DNA from: Escherichia coli
Lineage (GTDB): Bacteria > Pseudomonadota > Gammaproteobacteria > Enterobacterales > Enterobacteriaceae
DNA: 64,000 bases
Assembly: GCF_003334405.1 (NCBI RefSeq)
Contig: NZ_QOWM01000006.1
Strand: one strand, 5' to 3'
Below are positions 42,161 through 44,556 of the stretch, piece after piece. How positions within the stretch are numbered: position 1 is the first letter of the stretch; every line of letters starts with the position of its first letter. The notes below the pieces were generated by a model, which was given only the letters and a program-made list of their open reading frames with translations, did no database searches and was not told the origin of the DNA. A program made the position numbers and the translations under genes.

Positions 42161-42616
42161 TTGACTACTAACACTCATACTCTGCAGATTGAAGAGATTT
42201 TAGAACTTCTGCCGCACCGTTTCCCGTTCTTACTGGTGGATCGCGTGCTGGATTTTGAAGAAGGTCGTTTTCTGCGCGCAGTAAAAAATGTCTCTGTCAA
42301 TGAGCCATTCTTCCAGGGCCATTTCCCTGGAAAACCGATTTTCCCGGGTGTGCTGATTCTGGAAGCAATGGCACAGGCAACAGGTATTCTGGCGTTTAAA
42401 AGCGTAGGAAAACTGGAACCGGGTGAGCTGTACTACTTCGCTGGTATTGACGAAGCGCGCTTCAAGCGCCCGGTCGTGCCTGGCGATCAAATGATCATGG
42501 AAGTCACTTTCGAAAAAACGCGCCGCGGCCTGACCCGTTTTAAAGGGGTTGCTCTGGTCGATGGTAAAGTAGTTTGCGAAGCAACGATGATGTGTGCTCG
42601 TAGCCGGGAGGCCTGA
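42161..42616 (+). CDS. fabZ: 3-hydroxyacyl-ACP dehydratase FabZ
   Basis: ORF 42068..42616 trimmed to TTG 42161, giving a 151-aa protein (M)[28 protein letters not shown]...; hot-dog fold. Confidence 0.92.
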
Positions 42617-42619
42617 TAC

Positions 42620-43408
42620 GTGATTGATAAATCCGCCTTTGTGCATCCAACCGCCATTGTGGAAGAGGGCGCGTCAATTGGCGCGAACGCACACATTGGT
42701 CCTTTTTGTATCGTTGGACCCCATGTCGAAATTGGTGAGGGTACCGTACTGAAATCTCACGTTGTCGTGAATGGTCATACTAAAATTGGCCGCGATAATG
42801 AGATTTATCAGTTCGCCTCCATCGGCGAAGTTAACCAGGATCTGAAATATGCTGGCGAACCGACCCGTGTGGAAATCGGCGATCGTAACCGCATTCGCGA
42901 AAGCGTCACCATTCATCGTGGCACAGTCCAGGGCGGTGGATTGACGAAGGTGGGCAGCGACAACTTACTGATGATCAACGCGCACATTGCGCACGATTGT
43001 ACGGTAGGTAACCGCTGTATTCTCGCCAACAACGCAACGCTGGCGGGTCACGTATCGGTTGACGACTTCGCGATCATCGGCGGCATGACCGCAGTCCATC
43101 AGTTCTGCATCATTGGTGCGCACGTGATGGTTGGCGGCTGCTCCGGTGTGGCGCAGGACGTCCCTCCTTATGTCATTGCGCAGGGTAACCACGCAACGCC
43201 GTTCGGTGTCAATATCGAAGGGCTGAAGCGCCGCGGATTCAGCCGTGAGGCGATTACCGCTATCCGCAATGCGTATAAGCTGATTTATCGTAGCGGTAAA
43301 ACGCTCGATGAAGTGAAACCGGAAATTGCTGAACTGGCGGAAACATATCCGGAAGTGAAAGCCTTTACCGATTTCTTTGCACGCTCAACGCGCGGTCTGA
43401 TTCGTTAA
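42620..43408 (+). CDS. lpxA: UDP-N-acetylglucosamine O-acyltransferase
   Basis: 262-aa ORF with GTG start; hexapeptide repeats. Confidence 0.97.
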
Positions 43409-44556
43409 TGACTGAACAGCGTCCATTAACGATTGCCCTGGTCGCCGGAGAAACCTCCGGCGATATCCTGGGGGCCGGTTTAATCCGCGCTCTGAAAGAA
43501 CATGTGCCCAACGCCCGCTTTGTTGGTGTTGCCGGGCCACGAATGCAGGCTGAAGGCTGCGAAGCCTGGTACGAAATGGAAGAACTGGCGGTGATGGGCA
43601 TTGTTGAAGTGCTCGGTCGTCTGCGTCGCTTACTGCATATTCGTGCCGATCTGACAAAGCGTTTTGGCGAACTGAAGCCAGATGTTTTTGTTGGTATTGA
43701 TGCGCCTGACTTCAATATTACTCTTGAAGGTAACCTCAAAAAGCAGGGTATCAAAACCATTCATTACGTCAGTCCGTCAGTCTGGGCGTGGCGACAGAAA
43801 CGTGTTTTCAAAATAGGCAGAGCCACCGATCTGGTGCTCGCATTTCTGCCTTTCGAAAAAGCGTTTTATGACAAATACAACGTACCGTGCCGCTTTATCG
43901 GTCATACCATGGCTGATGCCATGCCATTAGATCCAGATAAAAATGCCGCCCGTGATGTGCTGGGGATCCCTCACGATGCCCACTGCCTGGCGTTGCTACC
44001 GGGGAGCCGTGGTGCAGAAGTTGAAATGCTTAGTGCCGATTTCCTGAAAACGGCCCAGCTTTTGCGCCAGACATATCCGGATCTCGAAATCGTGGTGCCA
44101 CTGGTGAATGCCAAACGCCGCGAGCAGTTTGAACGCATCAAAGCTGAAGTCGCGCCAGACCTTTCAGTTCATTTGCTGGATGGGATGGGCCGTGAGGCGA
44201 TGGTCGCCAGCGATGCGGCGCTACTGGCGTCGGGTACGGCAGCCCTGGAGTGTATGCTGGCGAAATGCCCGATGGTGGTGGGATATCGCATGAAGCCTTT
44301 TACCTTCTGGTTGGCGAAGCGGCTGGTGAAAACTGATTATGTCTCGCTGCCAAATCTGCTGGCGGGCAGAGAGTTAGTCAAAGAATTATTGCAGGAAGAG
44401 TGTGAGCCGCAAAAACTGGCTGCGGCGCTGTTACCGCTGTTGGCGAACGGGAAAACCAGCCACGCGATGCACGATACCTTCCGTGAACTGCATCAGCAGA
44501 TCCGCTGCAATGCCGATGAGCAGGCGGCACAAGCCGTTCTGGAGTTAGCACAATGA
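43408..44556 (+). CDS. lpxB: Lipid-A-disaccharide synthase
   Basis: 382-aa ORF; ATG overlaps the lpxA stop (TAATG). Confidence 0.97.

Follow-up and report, generated by a model that had tools for sequence, protein, structure and literature searches.

The non-ATG start codons in the dxr-to-rnhB region of the Escherichia coli DNA analysed here (a stretch of 64,000 nucleotides from contig NZ_QOWM01000006.1, referred to as the window) are really used: initiation occurs at TTG in cdsA and fabZ and at GTG in skp, lpxA and the adjacent frr. The region itself is an ordinary E. coli cluster for envelope biogenesis, with a complete annotation. It seems very probable to us that the whole can be explained by these real non-ATG starts together with initiation regions acting as set-points for the individual genes and a translational dependence of lpxD and lpxB on their upstream neighbours. 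Beyond annotation quality the matter is of little importance; fabZ and skp serve as counter-examples to the use of a non-ATG codon as a proxy for low expression.

Identity and layout of the cluster

According to a megablast search the 11.7-kb region matches many E. coli chromosomes at 100% identity, and MG1655 and the window strain differ by three bases in 14 kb. The window is placed at minute 4 of the K-12 map, its coordinates corresponding to those of MG1655 minus 159,940. Genes, coordinates, start codons and overlaps are all identical to those of K-12 b0172-b0184 (frr to dnaE, NC_000913.3); the differences are not of substance, PGAP-annotated strains taking ispU from ATG. All coding sequences of the cluster (Table 1) translate without internal stops. 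The genes rseP to dnaE (b0176-84) have been described as a single sigma-E-regulated unit (PMC2731931). The gene starts, the overlaps and the operon are already known, being present in the reference annotation, and experimental maps of the starts exist from Ribo-RET, INRI-seq and N-terminomics.

The original prediction had called fabZ and cdsA from TTG and lpxA, skp and ispU from GTG, which is correct according to the K-12 annotation. The two overlaps it described were likewise recovered, since lpxA ends at 43408, the first position of lpxB (1 nt, TAATG), and lpxB ends at 44556, 4 nt into rnhB, which starts at 44553 (ATGA). Its interval, 42161-44556, spans only fabZ to lpxB, and its title covers 33581-45149. 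Ten of the 46 same-strand neighbour pairs in the window overlap, each by 1, 4 or 8 nt, and the overlaps in the cluster are not unusual.

Table 1. Features of the cluster and its start regions in window coordinates
Feature	Coordinates	Strand	Details
frr GTG start	32932..32934	+	directly upstream of the cluster; absent from the original prediction
dxr-ispU-cdsA-rseP-bamA-skp-lpxD-fabZ-lpxA-lpxB-rnhB cluster	33581..45149	+	K-12 b0173-b0183; megablast, MG1655 and PGAP annotations
dxr start	33581	+	ATG (MG1655 annotation mapped onto the window)
ispU tandem starts	34963..34968	+	GTG 34963 (K-12 annotation); ATG 34966 (PGAP), next codon
cdsA initiation region	35726..35739	+	SD GGGGG 35726-35730, TTG start 35737
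rseP start	36606	+	ATG (MG1655 annotation mapped onto the window)
bamA start	37988	+	ATG (MG1655 annotation mapped onto the window)
skp initiation region	40530..40544	+	SD AAGGAG 40530-40535 (6-nt spacer), GTG start 40542
skp/lpxD junction	41025..41033	+	skp stop TAA, 3-nt gap, lpxD ATG
lpxD start	41031	+	ATG (MG1655 annotation mapped onto the window)
fabZ initiation region	42146..42185	+	SD AGGAAGAG 42149-42156, TTG start 42161-42163
fabZ/lpxA junction	42606..42622	+	SD GGGAGG 42606-42611, fabZ stop TGA 42614-42616, lpxA GTG 42620
lpxA/lpxB junction hairpin	43402..43432	+	TAATG 43406-43410 paired; predicted -10.3 kcal/mol
lpxB start	43408	+	ATG (MG1655 annotation mapped onto the window)
rnhB start	44553	+	ATG (MG1655 annotation mapped onto the window)
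lpxB/rnhB overlap ATGA	44553..44556	+	rnhB start, lpxB stop

Initiation at the non-ATG codons

Upstream in-frame ATG codons had been put forward as alternative sites of initiation, for example at 42068 for fabZ. The codon at 42068 is TTG, not ATG, and is preceded by no Shine-Dalgarno (SD) motif, and in E. coli no in-frame ATG was found between the start and the preceding stop for any gene of the cluster. In cdsA this upstream stop is the stop codon of ispU, five codons before the TTG. Across the panel of related loci, the preceding in-frame stop is 1-2 codons away in lpxA and at a median distance of 2 codons (at most 7) in cdsA. The nearest downstream ATG is codon 118 in lpxA, 70 in fabZ, 37 in cdsA and 29 in skp. 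Since the upstream stops are close and the first downstream ATG is far, the reading frames force the start positions.

Profiling of initiation sites, which had been proposed as a check, bears this out, as published Ribo-RET and INRI-seq peaks coincide with the annotated non-ATG starts. The values were taken from Table S2 of the INRI-seq study, which also lists the Ribo-RET peaks of Meydan 2019. Ribo-RET and INRI-seq peaks amount to 240 and 27-56 for fabZ (at K-12 202101), 121 and 11-21 for lpxA, 92 and 126-153 for skp, 547 and 31-104 for frr, and 7.5 and 0 for cdsA. The published N-terminomics entries listed in TRAINSPOTTER include the fMet N-terminus MISDIRK of frr, derived from GTG; the N-termini of FabZ, LpxA and CdsA are absent among the entries listed. 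The N-terminus of Skp is lost with the signal peptide.

The tandem starts of ispU form a separate case. Of 54 relatives, 53 carry at the position of the GTG a codon that is no start, mostly GTT, and all 54 keep the ATG. Both possible N-termini, MMLSATQ and MLSATQ, appear for K-12 among the TRAINSPOTTER entries, and the peaks at ispU reach 6-8 in INRI-seq and 9.3 in Ribo-RET. The ATG is ancestral and the GTG of K-12 is a lineage-specific addition, both codons being used.

It is extremely unlikely that the true starts are ATG codons elsewhere and that the non-ATG calls result from longest-ORF conventions. This explanation is true in part for ispU, where the GTG is not conserved, PGAP takes 34966 and an ATG-derived N-terminus is among the listed entries, and it may draw on the inconsistency of the public FabZ gene calls (151 to 208 aa). 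Automated gene callers often place the start of fabZ too far upstream, its conserved TTG being a start that they avoid. However, the missing upstream ATG codons, the TTG at 42068 without an SD, the nearby stops at lpxA and cdsA, the conservation of the residues directly following the non-ATG codons and the position of the Ribo-RET and INRI-seq peaks on the annotated codons all argue against it, and the MMLSATQ entry indicates that even the GTG of ispU is used in K-12.

GUG and UUG are canonical initiation codons, unlike the IF3-discriminated AUU of infC, which serves autoregulation. The initiation observed here resembles canonical GUG/UUG initiation in that the SDs are located 6-8 nt upstream, the complexes are trapped on the codon and fMet N-termini are found among the listed entries (frr, ispU). 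SD spacing, the second check that had been proposed, gave this distance for cdsA, skp, fabZ, lpxA and frr but not for ispU, the SD of which is weak and 11-14 nt away. In E. coli the cdsA SD has a predicted energy of -9.1 kcal/mol and a 6-nt spacer, the frr SD (AAGGA) an 8-nt spacer, and the fabZ SD, AGGA(AGAG), lies about 8 nt from the TTG. The lpxA SD sits within the last codons of fabZ, also with an 8-nt spacer. A consensus scan for a promoter using the fabZ TTGACT as sigma-70 -35 element found none, and a search of the literature collection used, for accounts of the fabZ TTG start codon or of lpxA-lpxB translational coupling, returned nothing relevant.

Start-codon conservation and translation output

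The start codons were compared in a panel of the best 80 loci or species, all of them Enterobacterales with a FabZ identity of at least 93% and not phylogenetically independent. In the protein homologue search the listed matches shared at least 77% identity and every named one belonged to the Enterobacterales; the search for protein representatives beyond this order returned metagenomic ones at up to 58% identity, plus fragments. Within the panel the TTG of fabZ and the GTG of lpxA are kept in 80 of 80 species, the TTG of cdsA in 68 of 68 loci and the GTG of frr in 61 of 61 related loci, while skp starts with GTG in 77 of 78 loci and with TTG in the remaining one. Only 19 of 1241 four-fold sites (1.5%) are invariant, with a mean frequency of the E. 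coli base of 0.50. Since the start codons are near-invariant while the four-fold sites are saturated, the comparison supports the view that the start-codon identities are under selection across Enterobacterales.

Changes in individual lineages follow different patterns. In Leminorella codons change among non-ATG triplets only (cdsA GTG, skp TTG), and in Blochmannia, with a genomic GC content of 28%, the TTG of fabZ, the GTG of lpxA and the TTG of cdsA persist and frr starts with ATG. Of the 86 Enterobacterales compared, 83 carry the combination of fabZ TTG and lpxA GTG. Members of the Morganellaceae (Photorhabdus, Xenorhabdus, Arsenophonus) have ATG at both genes: at fabZ the SD block is kept and TTG ACT is altered to TAG ATG, and lpxA has a less strong SD (about -5.7 to -6.1 vs -10.3).

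The accumulation of non-ATG starts in the cluster is modest and was noted post hoc. They were found in 5 of 11 cluster genes vs 5 of the 47 other genes in the window (Fisher p = 0.015; p = 0.083 with ispU taken as ATG and frr left among the remaining genes), and the binomial probability of at least 5 of 11 is 0.027 given a genomic non-ATG rate of 17%. In E. coli as a whole, GUG is the start of about 14% and UUG of about 3% of genes. Such figures, as well as the commonness of -1 and -4 overlaps in the window, would fit a neutral coincidence in which non-ATG starts cluster here without functional meaning. We nevertheless regard a coincidence as quite improbable in view of the near-invariance of the codons in 80 species with saturated four-fold sites, and also because GUG and UUG starts generally shift to AUG more often than the same triplets in non-coding DNA (Belinky 2017). 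Compared to this generic trend the codons of the cluster are kept more strictly, and three of the genes are highly translated.

The SDs of cdsA, skp, fabZ, lpxA and frr are conserved over the panel. Median SD energies across the panel are -9.7 (cdsA), -8.7 (skp) and -10.3 kcal/mol (lpxA) for genes with non-ATG starts, vs -3.2 (lpxD), -2.4 (lpxB), -3.0 (dxr) and -3.5 kcal/mol (dnaE) for ATG genes; a compensation of weak start codons by strong SDs has been described genome-wide (Belinky 2017), and the pairing of ATG with a weaker SD at lpxA in the Morganellaceae points the same way. The translation efficiencies (TE), taken from published tables for one growth condition, are 1.53 for fabZ, 1.51 for skp, 1.26 for frr, 0.21 for cdsA and about 0.19 (0.185) for lpxA, vs 0.86 for bamA, 0.44 for rnhB, 0.37 for lpxD, 0.21 for lpxB and 0.14 for rseP, all of which start with ATG. 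The start codon alone does not predict translation output here. The accessibility of the start regions predicted across species (0.39-0.57) was a poor guide to whether a gene is translated efficiently or poorly. The local folds of the seven start regions were no more stable than shuffles.

The original prediction had interpreted the non-ATG codons as tuned low initiation. As a general reading this fails, fabZ and skp having the highest TE in the cluster (about 1.5); gene by gene it fits the low values of lpxA and cdsA and not the high ones of fabZ, skp and frr. It appears unlikely that GTG and TTG are present to keep initiation low for these genes, even though both codons are weaker than ATG in reporters (the three canonical codons reach 10-100% of AUG), TE drops 8-fold from fabZ to lpxA, the start codons are conserved and selection for a weak start has been published for the GTG of lacI. 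Against it stand the Ribo-RET peaks of fabZ, skp and frr, which are among the strongest in the cluster, and the ATG genes rseP and lpxB, the TE of which equals or falls below that of lpxA and cdsA. As in the cluster, the non-ATG start of lacI is conserved in Enterobacteriaceae, implying selection (Cherrak et al. 2024, PMC11445065). In contrast to lacI and infC, the genes of the cluster encode essential envelope enzymes and chaperones instead of low-copy regulators, and low output due to the codon, as in lacI, was not found, since the TE of fabZ, skp and frr is the highest.

We rather presume that the start codon is one part of a conserved initiation region, consisting of codon, SD and local structure, which would set the translation rate of each gene at a set-point. 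A non-ATG start would then not mark low expression. In the genes concerned the codon would tend to be weaker and the SD paired with it stronger and conserved, and the rest of the initiation region would decide whether the outcome is high (fabZ, skp, frr) or poor (lpxA, cdsA). Against this reading it counts that the Morganellaceae tolerate ATG at fabZ and lpxA and that Blochmannia starts frr with ATG.

A more specific version, in which fabZ TTG and lpxA GTG form a maintained pair of set-points fixing the FabZ:LpxA ratio, is conceivable but doubtful. Such a pair may act at the branch point where R-3-hydroxymyristoyl-ACP goes either to phospholipid or to lipid A synthesis, and single-base swaps of the starts would be predicted to unbalance envelope lipid synthesis and to provoke LpxC/FtsH compensation. 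The conservation of the codons together with the double ATG switch in the Morganellaceae provides a testable hypothesis on FabZ/LpxA stoichiometry. Since the two switches go back to a single phylogenetic event, their co-occurrence is only suggestive.

The invariance of the fabZ TTG could also stem from another constraint, as the 40-nt block at 42146-42185 is nearly invariant as a whole, including the synonymous sites of codons 5-7, and bamA carries a comparable block. The TTG would in that case be kept as part of another functional element extending from about -15 to +25, for instance an RNA structure or a site bound by an sRNA or a protein, and not for start strength, which we consider quite improbable. 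The local fold at fabZ is not significant (z = -0.69), no Rfam family was found within the cluster, and the Morganellaceae retain the SD block yet alter TTG ACT to TAG ATG. Furthermore, efficiently initiated genes generally show synonymous constraint at their 5' ends.

Gene junctions and possible translational coupling

The tight translational coupling that had been proposed is plausible, with indirect support and for some of the junctions only: for lpxD and lpxB it draws on conserved junctions, weak SDs (-3.2 and -2.4 kcal/mol) and missing initiation peaks. In contrast, lpxA and rnhB show peaks of their own. The skp/lpxD gap is +3 nt in 73 of 78 loci and the fabZ/lpxA gap +3 nt in 80 of 80, the lpxA/lpxB spacing is always between -1 and +4 nt across the panel, and lpxB and rnhB overlap in 70 of 70 loci (-4 in 57, -8 in 10, -1 in 3). 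Although both genes are translated, peaks are absent for lpxD and lpxB. They are missing both from INRI-seq (in vitro, isolated fragments) and from Ribo-RET (in vivo) for lpxD, with a ribosome density of 378, and for lpxB, with a density of 38, at which the zero is possibly a threshold effect of weak expression. The autonomous peaks of rnhB are small (about 5.5). Because of the 8-fold drop in TE from fabZ to lpxA, the fabZ/lpxA junction is not coupled 1:1.

The genes lpxD and lpxB, and perhaps partly rnhB, combine an ATG with a weak SD and a tight or overlapping junction, and most likely need ribosomes arriving from the upstream gene. This dependence could be brought about either by termination-reinitiation or by an unfolding of the start region by the upstream ribosomes. 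The junctions share with coupled ATGA and TAATG/TGATG pairs the motifs, the conserved geometry, the weak downstream SD and the absence of a peak at lpxB and lpxD. They differ from such pairs in that lpxA and rnhB initiate partly on their own.

The start region of lpxB has the highest in vivo DMS Gini of the cluster (0.571), and its ATG is fully paired in the junction hairpin in 18 of 75 loci. The hairpin around TAATG holds for E. coli but was rejected as a conserved element, since any Leu codon other than TTA disrupts it with no compensating change. Between lpxA and lpxB the mRNA level drops 6.7-fold; a terminator-like hairpin within lpxB (43663-43692) was dismissed as the cause, its synonymous sites varying freely, and is probably a chance match.

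Among 58 expressed genes, hand-transcribed from two tables, both peaks were absent in 8 of 18 genes with tight junctions vs 2 of the 40 others (p = 7e-4). One of these two is secA, the translation of which depends on secM.

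Start codons of the dxr-to-rnhB genes

The 11.7-kb stretch around the cluster shares 100% identity with many E. coli chromosomes and, among 5,426 complete genomes of the species, was found in 5,425; it differs from K-12 MG1655 by 3 bases in 14 kb. The gene order frr, dxr, ispU, cdsA, rseP, bamA, skp, lpxD, fabZ, lpxA, lpxB, rnhB, dnaE corresponds to b0172-b0184, of which rseP-dnaE are given in the literature as a single sigma-E-regulated unit. When the MG1655 annotation was transferred to the window (window = MG1655 position - 159,940), the TTG and GTG starts of the original prediction and its overlaps of 1 nt (lpxA/lpxB) and 4 nt (lpxB/rnhB) were borne out (see the table). 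The adjoining frr is an additional GTG-start gene, and dxr starts with ATG. The predicted interval covered fabZ to lpxB but left out the rest of the named cluster. Its upstream ATG for fabZ at 42068 is in fact a TTG with no Shine-Dalgarno (SD) motif, and the window sequence contains no in-frame upstream ATG for any gene of the cluster.

Coordinates, start codons, initiation peaks and translation efficiencies (TE) of features in the window
Feature	Position	Strand	Sequence or source	Start-aligned codon (loci among the 80 closest)	INRI-seq peak	Ribo-RET peak	TE
frr start			GTG	GTG 61/61	31-104	547	1.26
ispU start, MG1655 annotation	34963	+	GTG		6-8	9.3	0.31 (GTG and ATG both used)
ispU tandem GTG-ATG-TTG	34963-34968	+	window sequence				
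cdsA start	35737	+	TTG	TTG 68/68	0	7.5	0.21
rseP start			ATG				0.14
bamA start			ATG				0.86
skp start	40542	+	GTG	GTG 77/78, one TTG	126-153	92	1.51
lpxD start			ATG				0.37
fabZ start	42161	+	TTG	TTG 80/80	27-56	240	1.53
lpxA start	42620	+	GTG	GTG 80/80	11-21	121	0.19
lpxB start			ATG				0.21
rnhB start			ATG				0.44
lpxA/lpxB junction	lpxA end 43408 = lpxB base 1	+	TAATG				
lpxB/rnhB junction	lpxB end 44556, 4 bases inside rnhB	+	ATGA				
HtrA (degP) 5' UTR thermometer	20904-20949		Rfam gathering-level				
t44 RNA upstream of rpsB	29820-29906		Rfam gathering-level				
CssrA between rpsB and tsf	30745-30854		Rfam gathering-level				
naRNA4	56118-56194		Rfam gathering-level				
16S rRNA (rrsH) start	63831-64000		Rfam gathering-level				

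The non-ATG starts of the cluster are real, as upstream stops, remote downstream ATGs, conserved N-terminal residues, mapped peaks and N-terminomics all indicate. For comparison, 80 loci with 10-kb flanks from different Enterobacterales species (the 80 closest of one FabZ scan) were used, on which the E. coli N-termini were placed by tblastn. All loci have an in-frame stop 1-2 codons before lpxA, and for cdsA the median distance to the preceding stop is 2 codons (2-7). The first downstream ATG is reached only at codon 118 (lpxA), 70 (fabZ), 37 (cdsA) or 29 (skp), and the residues directly after the non-ATG starts are conserved across the panel. The initiation-site profiling proposed as a check is already published, with peaks at the annotated non-ATG starts: Table S2 of the INRI-seq study (in vitro, isolated fragments) assigns peaks to annotated starts and also carries the Ribo-RET peaks (in vivo, retapamulin) of Meydan et al. 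2019. In a deformylation N-terminomics study (PMC13245402), the frr N-terminus is MISDIRK, from GTG.

The GTG of ispU is supported by the MG1655 annotation, whereas PGAP starts the gene at ATG 34966. This ATG is the ancestral start, since it is conserved, whereas 53 of 54 relatives have GTT or some other non-start codon in place of the GTG just before it. The GTG, a T-to-G change of the GTT found in most Enterobacterales, is confined to E. coli and to Klebsiella indica, where it arose independently. It is a recent extra start, and K-12 uses both: the same N-terminomics study detects MMLSATQ (GTG) and MLSATQ (ATG) for this strain.

Several further features were observed. In the dxr-ispU gap of 185 nt MG1655 annotates the small RNA IspZ (b4809; window 34844-34904), for which there was no matching Rfam family. 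Both profiling methods show an in-frame ATT peak at 32922 (K-12 192862), which precedes the GTG of frr by 9 nt. Published data also contain an out-of-frame GTG peak 8 nt into skp (40549, K-12 200489; INRI 91, Ribo-RET 9) and an internal in-frame ATG N-terminus, METDLQAK, at Skp residue 60 (40719, K-12 200659). Among the matches listed, many of the public gene calls for FabZ carry an upstream extension, giving 174-208 aa (region 42068-42160). They include a form of 182 aa that begins with TTG 42068 and Yersinia entries of 196 aa; the conserved TTG start is apparently passed over by gene callers.

Start codon identity and initiation strength

Non-ATG starts occur in 5 of 11 cluster genes versus 5 of 47 other window genes (Fisher p = 0.015; p = 0.083 once ispU is scored as ATG), and both TTG starts are among the cluster's five. 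At genomic usage (83% AUG, 14% GUG, 3% UUG) the binomial probability of at least 5 of 11 is 0.027. The clustering, in a region chosen post hoc, thus exceeds chance only modestly. Overlaps of this kind are common: of the window's 46 same-strand neighbour pairs, 10 overlap, by 1, 4 or 8 nt. The ATGA and TAATG junctions are textbook cases. All listed features stand in the reference annotation and the starts were mapped experimentally; the non-ATG starts and overlaps are real, ordinary and already known. New here are only how strictly the codons are conserved, the corrected start of ispU and a double switch in Morganellaceae.

The interpretation of these features as tight coupling with tuned low initiation proved half right. 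In the case of fabZ and skp, the TE (1.53 and 1.51; all TE values given here derive from ribosome-profiling and mRNA data tabulated by Burkhardt et al. 2017) and the strong initiation peaks contradict low initiation. Non-ATG genes hold the three highest TE values of the region, together with several of the strongest initiation peaks there. Judged by median SD energies in the panel, non-ATG genes tend to have stronger, conserved SDs (cdsA -9.7, skp -8.7, lpxA -10.3) than other genes here (lpxD -3.2, lpxB -2.4, dxr -3.0, dnaE -3.5), in agreement with genome-wide compensation (Belinky 2017). We read the start codon as one conserved component of an initiation region that sets each gene's rate, and a non-ATG codon as no flag of low expression.

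Conservation across Enterobacterales

The non-ATG codons are nearly invariant across the panel (see the table), and the ATG genes of the cluster have ATG in all loci. Neutral sites are saturated, given that just 19 of 1,241 four-fold degenerate sites (conserved amino acid, same genes) show no variation and that the frequency of the E. coli base averages 0.50; the non-ATG start codons are not. Genome-wide, GUG and UUG starts change to AUG more often than matching non-coding triplets (Belinky 2017), and the cluster codons are kept more strictly than this generic trend. A published precedent for a selected non-ATG start is the lacI GTG.

More distant Enterobacterales were examined individually. 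Blochmannia (28% GC) retains cdsA TTG, skp GTG, fabZ TTG and lpxA GTG and has ATG at frr; Baumannia retains frr GTG, cdsA TTG, fabZ TTG and lpxA GTG, and carries an ATG directly upstream of the skp GTG. In Leminorella (cdsA GTG, skp TTG) the changes stay within the non-ATG codons. Photorhabdus, Xenorhabdus and Arsenophonus (L085, L087, L088; locus positions fabZ 10001, lpxA 10457/10468) have ATG at both fabZ (TTG ACT to TAG ATG) and lpxA (GTG to ATG), together with a weaker lpxA SD (roughly -5.7 to -6.1 kcal/mol, compared with -10.3). All three retain frr GTG and skp GTG, and the first two cdsA TTG. ATG is therefore tolerated at fabZ and lpxA, the sole observed switch hitting both and coming with SD compensation; as a single lineage and one evolutionary event, the case is anecdotal.

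The bamA start region (37968-38014, about -20 to +27) shows hardly any variation in 74 species, synonymous sites included. This exceeds what coding by itself would account for and could reflect a regulatory or accessibility constraint. In the Baumannia locus (L084, 10450-12360) no genes are called at the expected place of lpxA/lpxB; the tblastn pieces, 68-79% identical, may be pseudogenes in this endosymbiont.

Possible translational coupling at the junctions

On indirect evidence, coupling to the upstream gene is plausible for lpxD and lpxB, which combine conserved junctions with weak SDs and zero peaks in both INRI-seq and Ribo-RET and are still translated (ribosome density 378 and 38). The skp/lpxD gap is +3 in 73 of 78 loci, the lpxA/lpxB spacing stays within -1 to +4 and lpxB and rnhB overlap throughout. 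Among 58 expressed genes readable in both tables and transcribed by hand, 8 of 18 tight-junction genes lack both peaks versus 2 of 40 others (p = 7e-4). One of these two is secA, a gene known to be coupled. In vivo, the start region with the most structure is that of lpxB (Gini 0.571), and in E. coli the TAATG lies within a predicted hairpin of -10.3 kcal/mol that is not conserved across the panel. The fabZ/lpxA junction, although its gap is +3 in 80/80 loci, is not coupled 1:1, because lpxA initiates autonomously and TE falls 8-fold from fabZ to lpxA; rnhB likewise has its own initiation peaks.

A terminator-like hairpin inside lpxB (43663-43692), whose synonymous sites are not conserved, is probably not the cause of a drop in mRNA in this region: despite the overlap, levels fall 6.7-fold from lpxA (1241) to lpxB (186) (window 42620-44556; Burkhardt 2017).
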